A DNA stretch of 64,000 nucleotides from Actinomycetes bacterium. GTDB taxonomy: Bacteria; Actinomycetota; CADDZG01; JAHWKV01. The stretch covers positions 11,014 through 75,013 of the forward strand of contig JAJCYE010000071.1 in assembly GCA_029263075.1 (NCBI GenBank), in the 5' to 3' direction. Every line of letters begins with the position of its first letter. The stretch's first letter is position 1. This document shows, piece after piece, positions 1-20,235 of this stretch. The notes under the pieces were generated by a model. That model searched no databases, was not told where the DNA came from, and saw only the letters and a program-made list of their open reading frames with translations. Both the position numbers and the translations under genes were made by a program.

Positions 1-405
1 GAAGTACTCAAGTTCGGGGCCGACGTAGTAGCTATAGCCGAGTTTGGCCGCATCTTTTAAGGTGCGTTTGAGCACCTGACGGGGGTCGCCGGCGAACGGG
101 GTGCCGTCGGGGTTCCATATGTCGCAGAACATTCGGGCCGAATCCGACCGTGATGGGTGGGCGGGCATGACCTGGAAGGTCGATGCATCCGGCCAGGCGA
201 TCATGTCCGACTCCTCGATGCGGGCAAAGCCCTCGATCGCAGAACCGTCAAACCCGATTCCCTCGGTCAGGGCCTCTTCCAGGTCGGTCGGCGTGATATC
301 GAAGGCCTTGAGAAAACCGAGGATGTCGGTGAACCAGAGGCGGACGAACTTGATGTTGCGTTCCTCAACCGTCTTTAGGACAAATTCTTGATCGGGTGTC
401 AGCAA
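1..405 (-). CDS. glnA: glutamine synthetase type I, N-terminal part (gene continues past window start)
   Basis: Reverse-strand translation starting at TTG 405-403 after a GGAGG RBS reads LTPDQEFVLKTVEERNIKFVRLWFTDILGFLKAFDITPTDLEEAL...GPELEYF, the typical GS-I N-terminal beta-grasp domain. Runs off the window edge. Confidence 0.85.
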   Translation of the reverse strand, partial: MLTPDQEFVLKTVEERNIKFVRLWFTDILGFLKAFDITPTDLEEALTEGIGFDGSAIEGFARIEESDMIAWPDASTFQVMPAHPSRSDSARMFCDIWNPDGTPFAGDPRQVLKRTLKDAAKLGYSYYVGPELEYF

Positions 406-453: not shown

Positions 454-1110
454 CTAGCCGGCGAAGCGATATCCCACGTTTCTGACTGTCTCGATCATGT
501 GGGCTTCATGCCCAAGCTTGGCCCTCAACCGTCTCACATGAACGTCTACCGTACGGGTGCCTCCAAAAAAGTCGTAGCCCCAGACCTCGCTTAACAGTGC
601 ACTACGCGAACACACCCGGCCCGGTCTTTGGGCCAGATAGGCGATCAACTCGAACTCCTTGAACGTCAGGTCCAGGGTCTCGCCCCGTACCTTTACCTCG
701 AAGCGCTCCCGGTTGATGTTGATTTCCCCGCGCTTGATCACGTCCGATGACTCCACCTCCACCGGGGTGACCACCCTGCGGATCCGGGTGTCCAACTCGA
801 TGGAGGTGCAGCGGTCGGTTAAGAAGTCGGAGGCGCCGCAGTTCCAGTCGAAGGTGGCGAGAGACTCGTCGGAGAGCACCACGATAAAGGGGGCCTCGGT
901 TTCGCCCCGCAGCTTGCGGATGACGCCGGCGGCCTCCTCCGGACGCTCCCGTCCGTCCACCAGAACCAGGTCGGCCAATCTGCGACCGAGAAGATCCGGC
1001 GTGGCGTCGGCAAATGTGATCGGCTCAGGTGCCGGCCGTTTACCGGCGAGAGGGGAGAAGGACTCCTCGGGATCGGAACGCTGACTACTCAGCCAAAGTA
1101 GGCGAATCAT
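454..1110 (-). CDS. glnR: GlnR-type orphan OmpR-family response regulator with atypical receiver and winged-helix C-terminus
   Basis: C-terminus LDLTFKEFELIAYLAQRPGRVCSRSALLSEVWGYDFFGGTRTVDVHVRRLRAKLG...VRNVGYRF matches actinobacterial GlnR almost residue by residue. Receiver retains DLVLVDG but lacks the acidic pocket. Adjacent to glnA. Confidence 0.8.
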   Translation of the reverse strand: MIRLLWLSSQRSDPEESFSPLAGKRPAPEPITFADATPDLLGRRLADLVLVDGRERPEEAAGVIRKLRGETEAPFIVVLSDESLATFDWNCGASDFLTDRCTSIELDTRIRRVVTPVEVESSDVIKRGEININRERFEVKVRGETLDLTFKEFELIAYLAQRPGRVCSRSALLSEVWGYDFFGGTRTVDVHVRRLRAKLGHEAHMIETVRNVGYRFAG

Positions 1111-3599: not shown

Positions 3600-3958
3600 C
3601 GGCGCCTGATCGGCGGCGGGTTTCGGTGCCCGCATAGGGTCCGAAAAGCCAGTCCTGCGTCGTTCGAGAAAATCACTGGCCTATTGCCATATCACCTTGT
3701 ACGATACCGATGTCGTGTCCCCCTGTGGGGAGGCGATGATGTGTAGCGTTTGTCGTTTCTAGCGGGGTAGTGGAATTCTTGACGATTTCCTCGATTTGTC
3801 CCTCGCAAGGGGGTAGAAAACTTCCCAAATATGCAGTGTTGGAAGCAACTGATTCGTCCCGGATTTAGATCCTCCGGACGGTCGTGTCGTTCTGATAGAG
3901 TTTGCTAGACTCGCGTCAATTCACTTAGATTCGAAATGAAACGTAAGAGGAGGTAGTA
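3600..3958 (+). promoter_or_regulatory. lower-GC intergenic leader/promoter region upstream of the Cys-rich secreted protein; strong RBS AAGAGGAGG 7 nt before the ATG
   Basis: About 360 nt noticeably AT-richer than surroundings (ttgacgatttcc..., tagaaaac, aaatatgcag). Ends in aagaggaggtagtaATG. Confidence 0.4.
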
Positions 3959-4500: not shown

Positions 4501-6078
4501 GTGCGTGAATTGAGCGCACCCGAATCTTCGCCCGAACTGCCGAACAAGCCGCCTTCGCCGCTGGCCCGACTGGCGGCGTCGCTGGGTTCGCCGGTGGACG
4601 CCGGTGCCCTCGCCTACTTCCGGATTGTTTTCGGGTTGGTACTCGCCTGGGAAGCGTACCGATACATGAGCTTCGGTTGGGTCGACAAGTACTACGTCGA
4701 CCGGCCGTTCTTGTTCGGTTACTGGCCTTTCGAATTCGTCAGGCCGTGGTCGGCCGACGGTCTGAGGGTGCATTTTGTCGTCCTGGTAGTAGCCGGCCTT
4801 CTCGTCAGTGCGGGCCTGTTCTACCGCCTGGCGACGGTTGTCGCGTTCTTGGGTGTGACCTACATGTTCTTGCTGGACAAGTCCCTGTACCTCAATCACA
4901 TCTATCTGGTTTGCCTTGTGGCGCTCGTGATGATGTTCCTCCCGGCCCATCGCCGCTGGTCGGTCGACGCCTTGCGCAGCACAGAAGTCGCTTGCGAGGT
5001 CGTTCCTGCCTGGATGTTGTGGCTTATCCGTTTCCAGATTGCCCTTCCGTACTTCTTCGGGGGGATATCCAAGCTCAACCCGGATTGGTTCCAGGGCCAG
5101 CCGTTGAAAATGTGGTTGGCGGATCAGACGGACTTCCCATTGATCGGCCACCTGTTCGTCCAGGACCCGGTTCCCCGGCTGATGACCTTCGGCGCCCTGG
5201 TGCTAGACCTGGGAGTGGTTCCGCTGCTCTTGTTCCGCAAGACGCGGCCCGTCGGATATGCGGCGGCGGTGGTATTTCATTTTCTGAACGCGAGGTTGTT
5301 CAACATCGGGATTTTCCCCTGGTTCATGATCGCGGCGACCGCGATCTTCTTCCCGCCCGACTGGCCCCGGCGGGTACTTAGGGATCTGAGGCGCAGACCG
5401 GAGTCGCTTCGATCGTTGGCCTGGTGGATCGGATTTGCGGGCGGAGCCTGGCTGGCGTGGTTCCTCCCGAAACGCTTTGAGGTGCCCCCAGTCGTCCTGG
5501 GGGGATTGGGCTGCGCCTTGGTTCTCTACAGCTTGGTAGAGCTCTTCCGGCCGCTTCCTGACGCTCCTGAGCCCGGCGGCGAGACGGGGGAGACCGCTTC
5601 CCTGGTAGCGAAGCGAGCGGACCGGCTTTCCCGCCCGGTTTCGGTGTTCCTGGCGCTTTGGGTTGCCTTCCATCTGCTGGTGCCCCTCAGGCACCTGGCG
5701 ATCCCGGGGAACACCTATTGGACCGAAGAGGGCCACCGTTTTTCGTGGATGATGCTGGTCCGATCTAAGGTCGGCACCACCCGCTACGTCATTACGGATA
5801 ACTCGAATGGCCGGACCTGGCAGGTCAATCCTGCGGTCTATCTGGCGCCGCATCAGCTTCAGGGGATGCGGGGCAAGCCGGACATGGTGCTTCAGTTCGC
5901 CCGCTACCTGCGGGATCGCCTCCACGAGGAGGGGCATACGGACGTCGAGGTCCGGGCGCTTACCAGCGTTTCGTTGAATGGGCGGGAGTGGCGTCCAATG
6001 GTCGATCCGGAAGTCGACCTTGCCGCAGCGCGGTGGCCGTGGTTCGGGCATGCCGATTGGATTTTGCCCGAGCGGTAG
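4501..6078 (+). CDS. HTTM-domain integral membrane protein, vitamin K-dependent gamma-glutamyl carboxylase-like
   Basis: N-terminal HTTM signature (LAYFRIVFGLVLAWEAY..., multiple TM). C-terminal NTYWTEEGHRFSWMMLVRSKVGTTRYVITDNSNGRTWQVNP resembles the conserved VKGC segment [41 protein letters not shown] (recalled from memory). GTG start is an assumption. Confidence 0.75.
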   Translation: MRELSAPESSPELPNKPPSPLARLAASLGSPVDAGALAYFRIVFGLVLAWEAYRYMSFGWVDKYYVDRPFLFGYWPFEFVRPWSADGLRVHFVVLVVAGLLVSAGLFYRLATVVAFLGVTYMFLLDKSLYLNHIYLVCLVALVMMFLPAHRRWSVDALRSTEVACEVVPAWMLWLIRFQIALPYFFGGISKLNPDWFQGQPLKMWLADQTDFPLIGHLFVQDPVPRLMTFGALVLDLGVVPLLLFRKTRPVGYAAAVVFHFLNARLFNIGIFPWFMIAATAIFFPPDWPRRVLRDLRRRPESLRSLAWWIGFAGGAWLAWFLPKRFEVPPVVLGGLGCALVLYSLVELFRPLPDAPEPGGETGETASLVAKRADRLSRPVSVFLALWVAFHLLVPLRHLAIPGNTYWTEEGHRFSWMMLVRSKVGTTRYVITDNSNGRTWQVNPAVYLAPHQLQGMRGKPDMVLQFARYLRDRLHEEGHTDVEVRALTSVSLNGREWRPMVDPEVDLAAARWPWFGHADWILPER

Positions 6079-6164: not shown

Positions 6165-6197
6165 AAAAAGGGCGACCCCCGGAGGGGTCGCCCTTTT
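6165..6197. terminator. bidirectional intrinsic terminator (gggcgacccc-cgga-ggggtcgccc flanked by A5/T4)
   Basis: 10-bp GC stem with A-run upstream and T-run downstream. Serves the HTTM gene (+) and Gly-rich paralog 1 (-). Confidence 0.8.
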
Positions 6198-6214: not shown

Positions 6215-6883
6215 TTAGCAGTCGTTGTTGGTGCCGGCGTCGGCACAAACGTCGCCGCTGTTGCCGGTCTCGCCGCTGTTGCCGGAGGTGCCGCCGTCGC
6301 CGGCGATGCCGGAGTCGCCGCCGACGCCACCTTCGCCACCGTCACCGGTGTCTGCGTCGCCGCCGTTACCTTCGCCGCCTTCGCCGCCTTCGCCGTTGCC
6401 ACCGTTGGCTCCGTTGCAACCTTCGCCGGTGTCGCCACCGCTACCGTCACAAGCACCGGTGCCGCCGTTGCCGCCTGCTCCGCCGCCGCCGTCGCCGCCG
6501 CCGGTGGTTGCACCTGCGTAGGCTCCGCTGCCGCCGGCTGCTCCGCCGCCGCCACCTGCGCCGCCGTTGCCGCCACCTGCGCCACCTGCGCCACCTGCGC
6601 CTGCTCCGCCGCCGCCGCCGTCGCCGCTACCGCCGGCCGCCGGGCCGGATGCGCCGCCTGCTCCGCCGGCTCCACCGTCTCCGGATGCGCCGCCTTCGCC
6701 GCCACTGCCGGTCTCACCGGAGTCGCCGCTGCTGCCGGATTCGAGGCTGAAGTCCTGCGAGCACTCGGCTTCGTCGGATCCGGCACCTGAGACGTCACAG
6801 TCGTTCTCTGCAGCCGCCGTGGGCATCAGCAGCGCTGAAACCATGGCGAGCATCATGAGCGTACCAAACAGCTTCTTGATCAT
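6215..6883 (-). CDS. secreted acidic Gly-rich repeat protein, paralog 1 (PGRS-like GGAGGNGG repeats, 6 conserved Cys)
   Basis: Signal peptide MIKKLFGTLMMLAMVSALLMPTAAA. Mature N-terminus ENDCDVSGAGSDEAECSQDF. Central GACDGSGGDTGEGCNG. C-terminus CADAGTNNDC. RBS GGAGG 8 nt upstream of ATG 6883. Confidence 0.8.
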   Translation of the reverse strand: MIKKLFGTLMMLAMVSALLMPTAAAENDCDVSGAGSDEAECSQDFSLESGSSGDSGETGSGGEGGASGDGGAGGAGGASGPAAGGSGDGGGGGAGAGGAGGAGGGNGGAGGGGGAAGGSGAYAGATTGGGDGGGGAGGNGGTGACDGSGGDTGEGCNGANGGNGEGGEGGEGNGGDADTGDGGEGGVGGDSGIAGDGGTSGNSGETGNSGDVCADAGTNNDC

Positions 6884-7036
6884 TACTGGTTACCTCCTAG
6901 GAACGGTTGGTGCCAGATGTCCTTGGGACACCGTGAGAAATCTATCCTCAGGGATGCGGCTTGGCAACCCCATTTGGGGGTGCCAGGAGGTAATTCTTAT
7001 GAGGAGTAGGAGTTTGGCTGGTTTGGCGAGAAAGAC

Positions 7037-7067
7037 GAAGGCCCCCGGGGAATCCCCGGGGGCCTTC
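7037..7067 (-). terminator. intrinsic terminator hairpin (14-bp stem gaaggcccccgggg/ccccgggggccttc) after paralog 2
   Basis: Perfect 14-bp inverted repeat with a 3-nt loop, then a T-rich tract on the minus strand. Confidence 0.6.
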
Positions 7068-7127
7068 GGTGTGACCTGATATGGAGTTGAGGGCTTGGCC
7101 CTCCGCTCCTAAATCACAGGTCTCGTT

Positions 7128-7796
7128 TTAGCAGTCGTTGTCGGTGCCGGCGTCGGCACATGCGTCGCCGCTGTTGCCGGTCTCGCCGCTGTCGCCGGAG
7201 GTGCCGCCGTTACCAGCGTTGCCGCTGACGCCGCCTTCGCCGCCGTTGCCAGCGTCGCCGGTGTCGGCGTCGCCGCCGTTACCTTCGCCGCCTTCGCCGC
7301 CTTCGCCGTCGCCGCCGTTGCCGCCGTTGCAGCCTTCGCCGTTGTCGCCGCCGCTGCCGTCACATGCGCCGTCGCCGCCGGTGCCACCTGCGCCGCCGCC
7401 GCCGTTACCGCCACCGGTGGTTGCGCCCGAGTAGTCGCCGCTGCCGCCGGCTGCTCCGCCGCCGCCACCTGCGCCACCGTTACCGCCACCTGCGCCACCG
7501 TCGCCGGCTGCGCCAGCTCCGCCGCCGCCGCCGTTGCCGCTGCCGCCGGCTGCTGCACCGGTGTCTCCACCAGCGCCGCCTTCGCCGCCAGCGCCGGACT
7601 CGCCGCCGTCGCCGCCACTGCCGGTCTCACCGGAGTCGCCGCTGCCGCCGGTCTCGAGGCTGAAGTCCTGCGAGCACTCGGCTTCGTCGGCTCCGGCACC
7701 TGAGACGTCACAGTCGTTCTCTGCAGCCGCCGTGGGCATCAGCAGAGCTGAAACCATGGCGAGCATCATGAGCATGCCAAAAAGCTTCTTGATCAT
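7128..7796 (-). CDS. secreted acidic Gly-rich repeat protein, paralog 2
   Basis: MIKKLFGMLMMLAMVSALLMPTAAAENDCDVSGAGADEAECSQDF...CADAGTDNDC. Same length and architecture as paralog 1. Confidence 0.8.
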   Translation of the reverse strand: MIKKLFGMLMMLAMVSALLMPTAAAENDCDVSGAGADEAECSQDFSLETGGSGDSGETGSGGDGGESGAGGEGGAGGDTGAAAGGSGNGGGGGAGAAGDGGAGGGNGGAGGGGGAAGGSGDYSGATTGGGNGGGGAGGTGGDGACDGSGGDNGEGCNGGNGGDGEGGEGGEGNGGDADTGDAGNGGEGGVSGNAGNGGTSGDSGETGNSGDACADAGTDNDC

Positions 7797-8033
7797 TGCG
7801 TGCTACCTCCCTGTTGCGTTGTCTTCTGACTTGGTGTTGCAGCGTTGCCTGATTGCTTGCTATCTCGATTCCCGCAACCCCATGGGACTTGCCGTGCACC
7901 TTATGCACCGTGGCGCCTAGGAACACTGTCCCCGAAGTTACGGCGTGACTCTATCAGGTTGGTTGGTCGGGAAGGTGGGAAGCCGCGAAGAAATCTTATA
8001 GACGGGTCGACGGGAGCAGCGCGGCTAGGAAAC

Positions 8034-8063
8034 AAAAAGGACGACCCGAAGGTCGTCCTTTTT
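8034..8063. terminator. bidirectional intrinsic terminator (ggacgacc-cgaa-ggtcgtcc flanked by A5/T5)
   Basis: Hairpin with flanking A and T runs, immediately after the stop of paralog 3. Confidence 0.75.
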
Positions 8064-8105
8064 GTTAGCCATTGCCCCGCACTTCATGTGCGGGACTCAA
8101 CGTCT

Positions 8106-8774
8106 TTAGCAGTCGTTGGTGTCAGCCTCGGCACATGCGTCGCCGGTGCTTCCGGAGTCGCCGGTGGTGCCGGAGTCGCCGCCGGTGCCTGCGTCGCCGG
8201 AGTCGCCACCGATGCCGCCTTCGCCGCCGTTGCCGGTGTCAGCGCTGCCGCCGTCACCTTCGCCGCCTTCGCCGCCGGTGCCGTCGCCGCCGTCGCCGCC
8301 GGTGCAACCAGCACCGTCGTCGCCGCCGCTACCGTCACATGCGCCGTCGCCGCCAGCGCCACCTGCGCCGCCGCCGCCGTTACCGCCACCAGTGGTAGCG
8401 CCCGAGTAAGCGCCGCTGCCGCCGGCTGCTCCGCCGCCGCCACCTGCGCCGCCGTTGCCGCCACCTGCGCCGCCGTCGCCGGCTGCGCCTGCGCCGCCGC
8501 CGCCGCCGTCGCCGCTACCGCCTGCTGCCGCACCGCTGGTGCCGCCGGTTCCGCCTGCGCCGGCTACGCCGGAGTTGCCACCTGCGCCACCCTCGCCGCT
8601 CTCGCCGGTAGCGCCGGAGTCGCCGGTGCCCAGTTCGTAGCTCTGCTCGCAGCTGGCTTCGTCTTCGCCGGCACCTGAAACGTCACAGTCGTTCTCTGCT
8701 GCTGCGGTCGGAACCAGAAGTGCGGCCGCGAGGGCCAGCATCATCAGCATTCCGAGGAGATTCTTGATCCTCAT
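8106..8774 (-). CDS. secreted acidic Gly-rich repeat protein, paralog 3 (most divergent N-terminus)
   Basis: MRIKNLLGMLMMLALAAALLVPTAAAENDCDVSGAGEDEASCEQSYELG...CAEADTNDC. Confidence 0.8.
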   Translation of the reverse strand: MRIKNLLGMLMMLALAAALLVPTAAAENDCDVSGAGEDEASCEQSYELGTGDSGATGESGEGGAGGNSGVAGAGGTGGTSGAAAGGSGDGGGGGAGAAGDGGAGGGNGGAGGGGGAAGGSGAYSGATTGGGNGGGGAGGAGGDGACDGSGGDDGAGCTGGDGGDGTGGEGGEGDGGSADTGNGGEGGIGGDSGDAGTGGDSGTTGDSGSTGDACAEADTNDC

Positions 8775-8957
8775 TCTGTGTGTCCTCCTTGTAGTTCTTC
8801 TAAAGCGGCTCCCAGAGGAGCCGTGATGCGTGCTTCAAACAAGGCATGAAGTTATGCAGCTTCACGCTGTGCTCGGGGAGTCTATCAAAACGCTTGGTCG
8901 GAATGGTGCCAGAACGGGAAGAAATATTCAGGGGTGTAGCGGTCCCAAAGGACGCGC

Positions 8958-8985
8958 AAAGGGCGGCCCGTTGGGCCGCCCTTTG
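8958..8985 (-). terminator. intrinsic terminator hairpin (gggcggccc-gtt-gggccgccc + TTTG) after paralog 4
   Basis: 9-bp GC stem, 3-nt loop, short T tract. Confidence 0.6.
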
Positions 8986-9025
8986 ATGTTGAGTGTTGCT
9001 TTAGTGCATTGCCGAGATCGGCTGC

Positions 9026-9694
9026 TTAGCAGTCGTTGTCGGTGTCAGCGTCTGCGCATGCTTCGCCGGAGTTGCCGGAGTCGCCGCTGGTGCCGGAGTC
9101 GCCACCGTCACCGGCGATGCCGGAGTCGCCACCGACGCCACCTTCGCCACCGTCACCGGTGTCAGCGTCGCCGCCGTTACCTTCGCCGCCTTCGCCGCCG
9201 GTGCCGTTGCCGCCATTGCCGCCGTTGCAGCCTTCGCCGTTGTCGCCGCCACTGCCGTCACATGCACCTGCGCCGCCGTCGCCGCCGGCTCCGCCGCCGC
9301 CGTTGCCGCCGCCGGTGGTTGCACCTGCGTAAGCGCCGCTGCCGCCGGCTGCTCCGCCGCCGCCACCTGCGCCGCCGTTGCCGCCACCTGCGCCGCCGTC
9401 GCCGGCTGCGCCTGCGCCGCCGCCGCCGCCGTCGCCGCTACCGCCGAGGGCTGCCGCGCTGGCGCCACCTGCGCCACCTGCGCCACCTGCGCCGGATGCG
9501 CCACCTGCGCCTGCGTCGCCGGTTGCGCCGGTTTCGCCGGTGTCACCGGTGGTGAGGTCGAATTCCTGCGAGCACTCAGCGCTGTCCGGGCCGAGGCCGG
9601 AGACGTCACAGTCGTTCTCTGCTGCTGCGGTCGGAACCAGAAGTGCGGCCGCGAGGGCCAGCATCATCAGGGTTCCCATGAGCTTCTTGATCAT
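9026..9694 (-). CDS. secreted acidic Gly-rich repeat protein, paralog 4
   Basis: Start taken at the internal Met (MIKKLMGTLMMLALAAALLVPTAAAENDCDVSG...) with AGGAGG RBS. The 341-aa track ORF has a non-homologous basic 5' extension and is rejected. Length then matches the other paralogs at 669 nt. Confidence 0.8.
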   Translation of the reverse strand: MIKKLMGTLMMLALAAALLVPTAAAENDCDVSGLGPDSAECSQEFDLTTGDTGETGATGDAGAGGASGAGGAGGAGGASAAALGGSGDGGGGGAGAAGDGGAGGGNGGAGGGGGAAGGSGAYAGATTGGGNGGGGAGGDGGAGACDGSGGDNGEGCNGGNGGNGTGGEGGEGNGGDADTGDGGEGGVGGDSGIAGDGGDSGTSGDSGNSGEACADADTDNDC

Positions 9695-10033
9695 TCTGTA
9701 TTTCCTCCTGTGTGTTCTTTTTGTTGCAATCGTTCCGTGGACCTTGCCGCCACGAAGAACGAAACCGTGAAAATTTGCGAACTGTTTGCGATGCCCGTGG
9801 GCGGTTCGATGTGCCGCCGGGTTGGTCTTTCGACCCTTTGAGATGACGACAACCATGCCCACACTAGCTGGCCGGTAGATGTTACCCCGTCGCTTGTTCG
9901 TGTTCAAGCAATTGTTGGGACCTCTAAAATGCTGCCCCCGAAGAAGCGGTGTCCTGCATGCGGTAGGCAGCCCGTGGCGCCGAGTTAGACTCAAGGGGCC
10001 CTTAATAAGCCGGGACTTGCGTCGGAGGATGAG

Positions 10034-10570
10034 TTGTCGGAGAAGCAGCAACGTCGTGATGACAGGATTCTGGACGCTGAGATCCTCAACAATGTCCAGA
10101 CGGTGCCAACCGGGGATCTGCGCACGCGGCGGGATGAGTGCCGTGAGTTGGAGTCGGAGTTTTCGTATGCCCGCCGTCTGCTCCAGGGCAAAATCGATAT
10201 TCTCGGTTCCGAGTTGAAGCGCCGTTCCGAGGGCGGTGATGTCGGCATGGGTGACCTGGTCGGCCGGCTTCCTTCAATACTGGCCGATGAACCCAGGACC
10301 GGCGGAGCGACCCGCCTGTTGGAATCGGATCTTCCCGCCAACGCCGGCAAGTACCGCCGGTACACGGAGCGGTTGGCTACCGGTCTTGCGCACATAGAGA
10401 CCTCTACGCCCGAAGAGCTGACCGCGATGGTGGAGGAGTTGGCGACCGAAGAGCGGAAGGTTTCTGAAGACCGCAGGCGCGCCCAGAAGATCATTGATGG
10501 GCTCAACGCAGAGTTGGTCCGGCGATATCAAAAGGGTGACGAGGATCCTTCGAGCCTCCTCGGCAACTGA
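10034..10570 (+). CDS. hypothetical cytoplasmic protein, likely coiled-coil
   Basis: 178-aa ORF. TTG start 5 nt after GGAGG. No recognised domain. Confidence 0.5.
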   Translation: MSEKQQRRDDRILDAEILNNVQTVPTGDLRTRRDECRELESEFSYARRLLQGKIDILGSELKRRSEGGDVGMGDLVGRLPSILADEPRTGGATRLLESDLPANAGKYRRYTERLATGLAHIETSTPEELTAMVEELATEERKVSEDRRRAQKIIDGLNAELVRRYQKGDEDPSSLLGN

Positions 10571-11354
10571 TCCGGTGGACCCCTCAGGCACTTCCGAGGT
10601 GAACGATGCGGACGGTCGGGTCTCCCCCGAGGAGATGGATTCCGATACCGACTACCGGGCAGAACTTGAACGCACCCGATCTCAACTGCTTGTCTTCGCT
10701 CGGGACATGAGCGCGGTCTACCAGCGCAAGCGTGAGCATGAACTAAAGCTGGGCGCCCTCCTGGAGGAGTTGAGAACCGACTATCTGTCGATCGTCGAGA
10801 CGCTGGCGCTGGTGGTCGAGGCCAAGGATCAGTACACCGCGAACCACCTTGAGCGGTGCAAGCGTTACGGCATCGCTCTGACCAGCCGCATCGACGAGTC
10901 GATGATCACCCCGCAGTTGCAGTACGGGTTCTTGCTCCACGACGTCGGCAAGATCGGTATCCCGGAAGGAATCCTGATGAAACCGGGACCGCTGACCGAC
11001 GAGGAGATGACGGTGATGAGAACCCATCCGCTGATCGGGGTGCAGATCGTGGCTCCGATGCGCCGGGTCCTCGATGAGGTCACGGTAGAGGTCATCCGGC
11101 ATCACCATGAGAGGTTCGACGGCAACGGCTACCCCGATGGACTAAAAGGCGAGGACATCCCGTTGTCGGCACGGATCTTCAGCATTGTGGACAGCTTCGA
11201 TGCCATGACCAGCGACCGGCCCTATCGCAAAGCCCTCGCCCTGGATGAGGCGTTAACCCGCCTGAGGGCCGAAGCCGGCAAACAATTCGATCCCGAGGTT
11301 GTCGCAGAATTCGAACAGCTCATGCAAAGCATCCAGTCCCCGGAGGATTGGTAG
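10494..11354 (+). CDS. HD-GYP domain phosphohydrolase (putative c-di-GMP phosphodiesterase); start uncertain
   Basis: HDVGKIGIPE ... HHERFDGNGYPDGL motifs. Track ORF overlaps the upstream gene by 77 nt. Alternative in-frame starts are GTG 10599 and ATG 10635. Confidence 0.75.
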   Translation: MMGSTQSWSGDIKRVTRILRASSATDPVDPSGTSEVNDADGRVSPEEMDSDTDYRAELERTRSQLLVFARDMSAVYQRKREHELKLGALLEELRTDYLSIVETLALVVEAKDQYTANHLERCKRYGIALTSRIDESMITPQLQYGFLLHDVGKIGIPEGILMKPGPLTDEEMTVMRTHPLIGVQIVAPMRRVLDEVTVEVIRHHHERFDGNGYPDGLKGEDIPLSARIFSIVDSFDAMTSDRPYRKALALDEALTRLRAEAGKQFDPEVVAEFEQLMQSIQSPEDW

Positions 11355-19213: not shown

Positions 19214-19957
19214 TTGGCTGACGTTACGTCTGTGGGCCTTCCTATTGCCTTTGTCGCCGGGGCGGCCTCCTTCCTTTCTCCCTGCGTGCTGCCGCTGCTG
19301 CCCGGCTACCTGTCGTATATGTCGGGCATGTCCCTGGAGATGGTGCGGGAGGGGAGTGCACCGGCAAAACGGTTGCTGGGCCCCACTTTGTTGTTCGTCG
19401 CCGGGTTCTCAACGATCTTTGTAGCCCTGGGCACTTCGGCGAGCCTGGCCGGTTCGCTTCTACGGGACAATCAGGTCCTGTTGACCCGCATCGCCGGGTC
19501 GCTGGTCATCCTTATGGGTCTGGCCTTTATGGGCTTGCTTCCTTTGCCGTTTCTTTACCGGGAAAAGCGCCTGGACATGAGGAGAGGTAGGACCTATACC
19601 GGCAACTACCTGATGGGGCTGAGTTTCGGTTTGGGTTGGACGCCGTGCATCGGACCGACCCTCGGCGCGACGCTGGTGATTGCCTCCCAAGCGGATCGGA
19701 TCGGTGAGGGGGCGTTGTTGCTGTTGGTGTACTCAATGGGGCTGGGCATTCCCTTCGTCCTTGCAGCTTTGGGTGTTTCGCGGCTTGCCGGGGCCTTGGG
19801 CTTTTTCCGCCGGCACCAGCAGGCGATCCTGAGGGTCAGCGGAGGGCTGCTGGTCGGCTTCGGCCTACTGCTGTTCTTCAATCGGGTTTACGTAATTTCC
19901 GCCTGGATTCAGCGGGGGATGGATGCGGTTGGGCTTGAGGAGTTGATCGGGATTTGA
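19214..19957 (+). CDS. ccdA: cytochrome c-type biogenesis thiol-disulfide transporter CcdA (DsbD transmembrane-domain family)
   Basis: LSPCVLPLLPGYLSYM and GWTPCIGPTLGA Cys motifs. Six TM. Confidence 0.85.
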   Translation: MADVTSVGLPIAFVAGAASFLSPCVLPLLPGYLSYMSGMSLEMVREGSAPAKRLLGPTLLFVAGFSTIFVALGTSASLAGSLLRDNQVLLTRIAGSLVILMGLAFMGLLPLPFLYREKRLDMRRGRTYTGNYLMGLSFGLGWTPCIGPTLGATLVIASQADRIGEGALLLLVYSMGLGIPFVLAALGVSRLAGALGFFRRHQQAILRVSGGLLVGFGLLLFFNRVYVISAWIQRGMDAVGLEELIGI

Positions 19958-20184
19958 GTGAGGTGGTGGTGTTCGGCAAGGAGGGTTGTTGTCTGTGCGA
20001 GGACGCCAAGGAAGCGCTCACTGCAGCGGGGGTGGGCTTCCGGGAGGTGGACATCACCCGTGACCCGGGACTGCTTCAGGAGTATGGGATAACAATTCCG
20101 GTCGTGGAGGTGGATGGCGTAGCAGTCTTCCAGGCGGGGATGAATCCGGCCGACCTTGCGGATCTGGTGCGTGAGGTGTCGTGA
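19954..20184 (+). CDS. glutaredoxin/NrdH-like thioredoxin-fold protein
   Basis: 76 aa, VVVFGKEGCCLCEDAKE (CxxC). 4-nt overlap with ccdA. Confidence 0.7.
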   Translation: MSEVVVFGKEGCCLCEDAKEALTAAGVGFREVDITRDPGLLQEYGITIPVVEVDGVAVFQAGMNPADLADLVREVS

Positions 20185-20196
20185 ATTCCGGGCACT

Positions 20197-20235
20197 AAAA
20201 AGGGCCCGACCAATTGGTCGGGCCCTTTTGTTTGT
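20197..20235. terminator. bidirectional intrinsic terminator (gggcccgacc-aatt-ggtcgggccc flanked by A5/T4)
   Basis: Perfect 10-bp stem between convergent genes. Confidence 0.8.

Follow-up and report, generated by a model that had tools for sequence, protein, structure and literature searches.

The minus strand of a 64,000-nucleotide stretch of DNA from an Actinomycetes bacterium (assembly GCA_029263075.1, contig JAJCYE010000071.1, positions 11,014 to 75,013; hereafter the window) carries four tandem open reading frames (ORFs), each of 669 nt including the stop codon (222 aa). Judged from their sequence, these are four real paralogous genes with predicted secreted, acidic, glycine-rich products and separate transcription, forming a real and well-delimited array of an undescribed and very rarely assembled family. 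The predicted proteins are unusual among secreted Gly-triplet repeat proteins, as they combine a lack of basic residues and a net charge of about -30 with six invariant cysteines and a strongly constrained glycine core. The reading that we favour, with a probability of roughly 0.4, is that of a folded, disulfide-stapled, polyanionic Gly-triplet protein which would serve outside the cell as a cation-binding (most likely Ca2+), hydration-protective component.

The four genes and their reading frame

Copy 1 occupies positions 6215-6883 on the minus strand and encodes a 222-aa precursor comprising a predicted 25-aa Sec signal peptide and a 197-aa mature chain, with a ribosome-binding site (RBS) AGGAGG at 6893-6898. 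Copy 2 (7128-7796, minus strand) encodes a 222-aa precursor with 86% identity to copy 1 and has the RBS GGGAGG at 7806-7811, while copy 3 (8106-8774, minus strand; AGGAGG at 8784-8789) is the most divergent, its 222-aa precursor sharing 75% identity with copy 1. Copy 4 (9026-9694, minus strand; AGGAGG at 9704-9709), again a 222-aa precursor, is taken to start at the ATG at 9694; a longer TTG-initiated ORF reaching 10051 was considered and is not the copy 4 gene. From these coordinates, the start-to-start distances between neighbouring copies are 913, 978 and 920 nt. The (A/G)GGAGG element lies 9 nt before the ATG in all four copies, at constant spacing. DNA identity between copy pairs ranges from 77 to 88% and protein identity to copy 1 from 75 to 86%. 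In the four-copy alignment, a near-invariant core at nt 300-360 shows 0-3 variable sites per 30 nt. Copy 3 has one residue more at the N-terminus and one fewer at the C-terminus, leaving its length at 222 aa.

The earlier note on this DNA had described four minus-strand units of 669 nt and 222 aa, each with a signal peptide, six invariant cysteines and a near-invariant core, and the coordinates and the alignment of the four copies bear all of this out. Its assignment of AGGAGG to every unit holds for copies 1, 3 and 4, with copy 2 carrying GGGAGG. The Cys-loop consensus strings that it quoted need a similar correction: the loops are present, but copy 3 departs from the strings with GAGCTG and CAEADTNDC, and copy 4 with CDVSGLGPDSAEC.

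Variable sites among the four copies fall at codon positions 1, 2 and 3 of the Gly-rich frame in the numbers 47, 54 and 104. A Nei-Gojobori comparison of the ratio of non-synonymous to synonymous substitution rates (dN/dS) over 12 pairs, three relatives included, gave 0.39 for the Gly frame, 1.1-1.8 for four other frames and 0.40 for the plus-strand Pro-rich antisense frame; the same-strand Ala-rich frame has a dN/dS above 1. Because the Pro frame shares wobble positions with the Gly frame, substitution patterns alone cannot tell the two apart. The Pro frame is ruled out by a stop codon that splits it in all four copies (in copy 1 into pieces at 6225-6521 and 6567-7079) and by its run across gene boundaries, the second piece extending past the start of the gene into the adjoining spacer. 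A conserved ATG, a fixed-distance RBS, a signal peptide, invariant cysteines and a conserved stop with a terminator directly after it are features of the Gly frame alone, and this frame is intact in three loci of another metagenome (L008, L009 and L010). The coding assignment made in the earlier note thus stands on ORF structure, since codon positions by themselves are insufficient against the Pro frame. A true gene in the plus-strand Pro-rich or same-strand Ala-rich frame, or an array of non-coding repeat DNA, would be in keeping with the equal dN/dS of the Pro frame and with exact look-ups in a 15-billion-protein collection, where all four products are missing despite the presence of proteins encoded by flanking genes of the same 90,123-bp NCBI contig; none of ten alternative-frame ORFs of the array was found in the collection either. 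Set against the broken Pro frame, the Ala-frame dN/dS, the gene signals that accompany the Gly frame alone and its integrity in the three other loci, such a reading is extremely improbable.

Features of the predicted proteins

The precursors begin with a predicted Sec-type signal peptide of the pattern M(R)IKKL..LMMLA....LL.PTAAA-EN, and cleavage presumably follows the AxA motif, between AAA and EN. The mature chains of 196-197 aa (~16 kDa) consist of 44-45% Gly and ~13% Ala, with 0-1 Pro, 5-8 hydrophobic residues per ~197 and one or two aromatic residues per chain. Their 30-34 Asp and Glu residues (15-17%) stand beside no Lys, Arg or His, giving the net charge of about -30; copy 1, for example, has 45% Gly, 30 acidic residues and no Lys, Arg or His. 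No lipobox, sortase motif LPXTG or transmembrane anchor was found in the four proteins.

Three pairs of closely spaced cysteines punctuate the chain. The N-terminal acidic loop, C-D-x10-C-x-Q, is delimited by C29 and C41 and is followed by ~100 residues of Gly-X-X and Gly-Gly-X triplets, among them the strongly conserved core, which is made up of three ~21-residue units and contains one aromatic residue. The central loop, GACDGSGGDxGxGC, spans C145-C156; ~55 residues of fast-evolving GGX triplets separate it from the C-terminal acidic loop C-A-D-A-x-T-x-N-D-C (C213-C222), whose last cysteine is the C-terminus of the protein. All three loops are rich in Asp, Glu and Asn, and each local cysteine pair probably forms a disulfide. 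The triplet order is strict, with glycine autocorrelation maxima at lags 3, 6 and 9 and in-phase triplet runs of 11, 9 and 11. At the DNA level, Tandem Repeats Finder reports periods that are multiples of 9 nt (9, 18 and 27) and, in the core, a 63-nt (21-aa) unit repeated about 2.5-2.8 times.

All six cysteines are kept without exception in the four copies, as they are in three full-length relatives found in another metagenome. Among these seven full-length members, 114 of 237 alignment columns are invariant and the mature length is 196-200 residues in six. The motif GEGGEGGEG occurs in all four copies; no Glu is strictly conserved in the seven-member alignment, and in the relatives these positions are taken variously by Asp, Glu, Gly and Thr.

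Evolution and selection

The copies resemble one another differently from region to region. In the signal peptide, copies 1 and 2 and likewise copies 3 and 4 are identical at 21 of 25 codons, compared with 7-9 of 25 across these groups, whereas in the C-terminal repeats copies 1 and 4 form the closest pair, at 40 of 55 codons. Such mosaic identity fits recombination or gene conversion, in line with the recombination proposed in the earlier note. The array appears to evolve by duplication and inter-copy recombination.

The core yields a different signal. Over its 59 codons, comparison with L010 gives 21-25 synonymous and 3-7 non-synonymous differences, corresponding to a dN/dS of 0.07-0.15 at a dS of 0.62-0.77, and the overall range for the core is 0.07-0.3. 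Since its amino acids are kept against relatives from another metagenome despite this high dS, the core points to purifying selection and not to mere homogenisation: it is near-invariant, as had been claimed, but not simply a conversion tract. That a nearly pure Gly/Ala sequence is conserved residue by residue also speaks for a defined structure. For the C-terminal GGX repeats, dN/dS is 0.5-1.5. On these sequence comparisons, the core and the Cys loops are under purifying selection, and the C-terminal repeats evolve under relaxed or diversifying selection.

Relatives and habitat

Neither Pfam (E<=1) nor NCBIfam assigns a family to any of the four proteins; the sole match, 'NOVBLXIJ' at E 0.03, is confined to the signal peptide and was set aside as noise. 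A HMMER profile search of 1.84 billion cluster representatives with a cut-off of E<=1e-3 returned 26 matches, about 18 of them true relatives and the remainder collagen-like compositional matches. Most of the true relatives are fragments of 66-130 aa that end within the Gly repeats, mostly at contig ends. Among 185,579 species genomes searched with a seven-row N-terminal profile, members were found in one soil metagenome-assembled genome (MAG) only, Actinomycetota SMAG_U6709, where both lie at contig ends; the same profile gave no match in the JGI metagenomes. A word-indexed search for homologues of a full-length copy, swamped by Gly-rich candidates, returned one match, and an N-terminal profile search returned four fragments. 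In the window itself, Gly-like tblastn matches at ~49.2 kb, 23.5 kb and 1.4 kb were rejected as off-frame Ala/Pro-rich parts of unrelated genes.

A degenerate DNA pattern, built by hand for the first Cys loop, recovered three true loci (L008, L009 and L010), all in the JGI metagenome Ga0136613, together with a phage-like chance match (L011) that was discarded. Of the sample accessions looked for in the literature, Ga0136613 alone could be traced; a gene from it is listed in a paper on an 'Antarctic Dry Valley metagenome' (PMC10140301), which places the three loci in an Antarctic Dry Valley soil metagenome. Their products are full length (222-235 aa), have the same three Cys loops and share the core of the window's proteins, GGSGDGGGGGA...GGGNGGAGGGGGAAGGSGA[YW]AG[AT]TTGGG[DN]GGGG. 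The L010 contig ends in poly-G (~2564-2623) directly after the last Cys codon; this is taken as a sequencing or assembly artefact, so that the stop codon of the L010 member is unseen.

The tandem layout is a property of the family, as at least two copies lie in tandem in L009 and at least two family genes are adjacent in L005. The two L009 copies adjoin rsiG and an HD-GYP-type gene, as in the window; the first (L009a) is the positional orthologue of copy 4, and the second, truncated, that of copy 3. In L016, the family copy (P0002) is divergent from rsiG and is again a positional orthologue of copy 4. The products constitute a lineage-restricted orphan family of uncultured soil Actinomycetota. 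As a side observation, a 66-aa gene (P0015; L015, 1201-1401, plus strand), flanked by pup and the proteasome genes in another actinobacterium, contains only the family signal peptide and the first Cys-loop module.

Assembly support and representation in databases

In three independent short-read assemblies of the same organism, the contigs (L001-L003 and L012-L014) break off at position 6350, within copy 1, and resume at 9641, within copy 4. The final bases of L001 fit copy 4 and not copy 1, a sign of a repeat-induced tangle. With the short-read contigs ending at the array edges, the interior of the array comes from one assembly; it is supported by the 12-23% divergence between copies, by unique spacers and by the orthologous junction in L009, a contig that independently shows two tandem copies. 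The absence of the four products from the 15-billion-protein collection means either that no gene was called at the array or that genes were called with other boundaries. As short-read assemblers break at both edges of the array and its products are missing from the collection, families of this kind are possibly under-counted systematically.

Comparison with known glycine-rich families

The PGRS resemblance suggested in the earlier note extends to triplet composition and not to membership. PGRS domains consist of Gly-Gly-Ala and Gly-Gly-Asn triplets, have been modelled as a polyglycine-II (PGII) sandwich and display a hydrophobic or aromatic (Phe, Trp) loop edge for association with the mycomembrane (PMC9436101). 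The array proteins share with them 45% Gly, a period of 3, GGAGGGNGGAGGGGG-type strings, a recombination-prone multigene family, an actinobacterial host and a surface or extracellular location. They differ in having neither a PE domain (PF00934) nor a GRPLI linker, the Pfam scan at E<=1 being empty; in carrying a Sec signal peptide, where PE_PGRS proteins use ESX-5; in missing the hydrophobic/aromatic loop edge, with 5-8 hydrophobic and one or two aromatic residues; and in being strongly acidic, of fixed length and equipped with six invariant cysteines. No PE_PGRS-like protein was among the 26 profile matches, although the composition correction of HMMER may mask weak similarity.

A likeness to beta-roll (RTX) repeats had also been noted, and it holds for the Gly/Asp-rich character of the secreted repeats and for several GGxGxD strings. 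Membership is not borne out: the hydrophobic position 8 of the RTX nonapeptide is missing, the period is 3 and not 9 residues, and PF00353 has no match at E<=1 in the four copies. The same scan finds PF00353 in the relative L005, which demonstrates that it is able to detect the RTX family. There, a truncated gene at 14-268 (plus strand) fuses PF00353 repeats (E 3.4e-9, 36.9 bits, above the cut-off) to the C-terminal Cys module of the family and ends in ...SGDSGDSGDACADADEDNDC-stop; a second family member, P0004, with a different C-terminal loop, lies downstream at 514-1032 (plus strand).

Collagen-like proteins such as BclA and Scl are matched by stretches of 9-11 uninterrupted triplets with Gly at every third residue. 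The array proteins nevertheless contain 0-1 Pro and, to the detriment of triple-helix stability, many Gly at X and Y, shift register several times, and possess neither a trimerisation domain nor a Pfam Collagen (PF01391) match. A profile search of the PDB at E<=10 returned only collagens, BclA and a cytochrome, the collagen and BclA matches being weak (E 0.022-9.1) and compositional.

The closest format is that of springtail antifreeze proteins. Like PGRS domains, these are Gly-triplet proteins whose outward residues are small and for which a PGII sandwich has been modelled or solved, and their 15-kDa isoforms combine a ~20-aa signal, a ~190-aa mature chain, GXX/GGX repeats, 2-4 disulfides and multiple isoforms (PMC10235112). 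The array proteins likewise combine a signal peptide with a chain of ~190 aa, ~45% Gly, GXX/GGX triplets, several probable disulfides and many isoforms, and some of their relatives share a cold habitat. They differ in their net charge of about -30 and in the absence of Pro-containing turns. The ice face of the springtail proteins is flat and Ala-rich on alternate helices; the array proteins have 13% Ala beside 15-17% Asp and Glu, with no alternation discernible by eye. The PDB, which presumably holds snow-flea antifreeze entries, yielded no homology to snow-flea or springtail antifreeze proteins in the profile search at E<=10. The antifreeze fold, a two-layer antiparallel polyproline-II (PPII) helical bundle, has so far been reported only in Collembola. 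Overall, the array proteins resemble the Gly-triplet class but are not supported as members of any of these named families.

Proposed function and alternative explanations

In the mechanism that we favour, three neighbouring cysteine pairs would form disulfide-closed loops after Sec export, and the Gly triplets would pack into a compact PGII-type, or similarly Gly-dependent, fold with Asp, Glu, Asn, Ser and Thr at the outward X positions. Outside the cell, as part of the envelope or matrix, the polyanionic protein would bind cations (most likely Ca2+) and hold water, shielding cells in dry and freezing soils, with four separately promoted copies providing high dosage and condition-specific isoforms. 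The Ca2+ role is suggested by the RTX fusion to the family's C-terminal module in L005 and by the Asp/Glu/Asn-rich Cys loops, and protection in cold, dry soil by the occurrence of L008-L010 in Antarctic Dry Valley soil and of another relative in a soil MAG. The PGII fold is proposed from the accepted model for other Gly-triplet proteins (PMC9436101, PMC10235112). Several results weigh against this interpretation. AlphaFold2 gave mean pLDDT values (its per-residue confidence score) of 38.5 with a 5-row alignment and 44.9 from the single sequence, below 50 almost throughout, so that both models are of low confidence and unusable; Foldseek found no match for them in the PDB, and the fold is consequently conjectural. 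No known Ca-binding family matches the four proteins in Pfam (E<=1) or NCBIfam, and the RTX link consists of one short contig with a shared module of 20 residues. Copy number and order within the array depend on one assembly, and the habitat is deduced mainly from one metagenome, the collections searched being incomplete.

The same low-confidence models would suit polyanionic secreted proteins that are intrinsically disordered. In the envelope or the biofilm matrix, such chains would work as an 'entropic bristle', a spacer or a hydrated gel, and their disulfide loops would do no more than curb proteolysis. Extreme low complexity, 5-8 hydrophobic residues in 197, the very high net charge, pLDDT below 50 nearly throughout and the C-terminal dN/dS of 0.5-1.5 agree with this idea; it is nonetheless rather unlikely, as a Gly/Ala core constrained at exact positions (dN/dS 0.07-0.3 at high dS) would be unusual for a disordered spacer, and a defined structure is favoured by the almost fixed length (six of seven mature chains measure 196-200 residues), by the strictness of the triplet register and by the invariance of all six cysteines. 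Ice-binding proteins with antifreeze or recrystallisation-inhibiting activity, built as PPII/PGII bundles by convergence with springtails and controlling ice around cells in polar desert soil, are a less probable alternative. The 25-aa signal, the 197-aa chain with its 45% Gly and six Cys, and the four isoforms make up a format very like that of the 15-kDa collembolan isoforms, and relatives occur in the Antarctic Dry Valley soil metagenome. However, 30-34 acidic and no basic residues are at odds with the Ala-rich, flat hydrophobic collembolan face, no similarity to snow-flea entries emerged from the PDB search at E<=10, AlphaFold2 gave no usable model of the fold (pLDDT 38.5 and 44.9), and other relatives come from soil samples of unknown climate. 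It is improbable, to the same degree, that these are the first bacterial PGII/PPII helical-bundle proteins, secreted, disulfide-stapled and Ca2+-loaded, which would bind ice or hold water for polar-desert Actinomycetota in convergence with springtails; if so, the family would have escaped notice through breaks in its assembly and through the absence of its products from the protein collection (one contig checked).

The mosaic identity between copies, the fast C-terminal repeats (dN/dS up to 1.5), the repeat-rich DNA with periods of 9-63 nt and the recurrence of the tandem layout in relatives could instead indicate variable surface or decoy proteins, along the lines suggested in the earlier note, in which repeat recombination would generate sequence or copy-number variants that evade, for example, phage or predators. 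Yet surface attachment is not evident from proteins without a lipobox, LPXTG motif or transmembrane segment, gene length is conserved and not variable, and the core is invariant, which leaves this possibility with quite low odds. A very unlikely role as enzyme substrates is raised by the gene at 4501-6078 (plus strand), which encodes a 525-aa vitamin-K-dependent gamma-carboxylase homologue (HTTM, E 6.8e-83; VKGC lumenal domain, E 2.2e-46). The placement of a full-length bacterial VKGC homologue beside predicted Glu-rich exported proteins is suggestive: it directly adjoins copy 1 and has an apparently bidirectional terminator in common with it, the products are predicted to be exported and are Glu-rich, with GEGGEGGEG in all four copies, and modification of Glu or maturation of the proteins by the enzyme could raise Ca2+ binding. 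The HTTM protein SdpB of Bacillus subtilis is required for maturation of SdpC, an exported, disulfide-containing toxin, which lends this idea some support. Against it, the genes are convergent and are not transcribed together, this organism is the only one known to have the adjacency and relatives with known flanks adjoin other genes, no Glu is strictly conserved where Asp, Glu, Gly and Thr interchange, and no propeptide for carboxylase recognition is recognisable, a feature that is hard to judge for a bacterial enzyme.

If the cation-binding, hydration-protective interpretation holds, the array represents an undescribed extracellular protein family of Actinomycetota from cold, dry soils and a second independent type of Gly-triplet protein in the phylum after PGRS, in this case Sec-exported, polyanionic and disulfide-stapled. 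It would also offer a small, tractable PGII model of 16 kDa with no membrane or ESX dependence, and a candidate for Ca2+-dependent hydration, desiccation or ice protection.

Transcription signals

On the evidence of predicted elements, the copies are separately promoted and terminated. Copy 1 is followed on the minus strand by a hairpin at 6166-6197 (-29.6 kcal/mol, z -5.1), its stem preceded by an A-run and followed by a T-run, and this terminator is shared with the convergent HTTM gene ending at 6078. The hairpin after copy 2 (7036-7068, minus strand), identified by a terminator scan, has a 15-bp stem followed by TCTTTCT (-35.6 kcal/mol, z -6.4). Two hairpins follow copy 3 at 8031-8096 (minus strand), jointly reaching -44.5 kcal/mol (z -8.5), the second having A5 before and T5 after its stem. 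The hairpin after copy 4 (8957-8985, minus strand; -25.4 kcal/mol, z -4.8) has a TTT tail only and occupies the same position in L009. All follow the respective stop codon within 20-70 nt, and no shuffled sequence folds as well. The A-run before and T-run after the stem make the hairpins after copies 1 and 3 look bidirectional, and the folding energies (z -4.8 to -8.5) are in line with the earlier proposal of a hairpin terminator for each copy, two of them bidirectional.

The promoter region differs for each copy. A promoter-like element of copy 1, TTGCCA-17 nt-TAGATT, lies at 6939-6967 (minus strand), where the promoter scan gave 1 site against 0.2 expected. Copy 3 has an extended -10-like element, TGATAGACT, at 8879-8887 (minus strand), within a block, TTTGATAGACTCCCCGA, that is conserved in L009; by analogy with it, a similar element of copy 2, TGATAGAGT, was read from the sequence at 7948-7956 (minus strand). 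The candidate element of copy 4, TTGAAC-17 nt-TAACAT at 9879-9907 (minus strand), has both hexamers kept in L009a while its spacer has diverged, and the RBS is also conserved in L009 while the spacers have diverged.

The short motifs said to be shared upstream of copies 1 and 2 are present, but exceed chance weakly and differ in order between the two regions: GCAACCCCAT is found in the window only at 6964 and 7874 (0.16 expected), and CTAGGAAC at 6897, 7917 and one further site (three against 0.88 expected). The differential regulation that the earlier note read from these motifs is a hypothesis. The shared motif that reads ATGGGGTTGC on the minus strand (6964-6973 and 7874-7883) overlaps the -35 element of copy 1 and sits in the 5' untranslated region (UTR) of copy 2, and a similar arrangement, AGATGGGGCGG...CCCTGAGAAT, occurs upstream of the family gene in the distant MAG locus L006 (~3640-3680). 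A separate block in the predicted 5' UTR of copy 4 (9737-9766, minus strand), GGTTTCG...TGGCGGCAAGGT.CA.G, is conserved in L009a ~45-70 nt before the ATG, and may act as an RNA element, an operator or an additional promoter; Rfam gave no match at gathering thresholds.

Neighbouring genes

Divergent from copy 4 lies rsiG (10034-10570, plus strand; PF22802), followed at ~10599-11354 (plus strand) by an HD-GYP-type gene resembling those for cyclic di-GMP (c-di-GMP) phosphodiesterases. The product of rsiG is a c-di-GMP-binding anti-sigma factor of WhiG, and its adjacency to family genes recurs in L009 and L016. This arrangement may reflect c-di-GMP or developmental control of the array, or mere synteny among close relatives. 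As rsiG adjoins the array, WhiG (sigma-28-type) promoters were considered and rejected: by eye, the -10 boxes are of the TANNNT type (TAGAnT, TAACAT) and do not conform to TAAA-N15-GCCGATAA. At ~19214-20230 (plus strand), ~9.5 kb from the array, a gene for a DsbD_TM/CcdA-type membrane protein precedes a glutaredoxin-like gene (annotation on L012); the pair may serve thiol-redox chemistry in the envelope, which would bear on exported Cys proteins, or may have nothing to do with the array.

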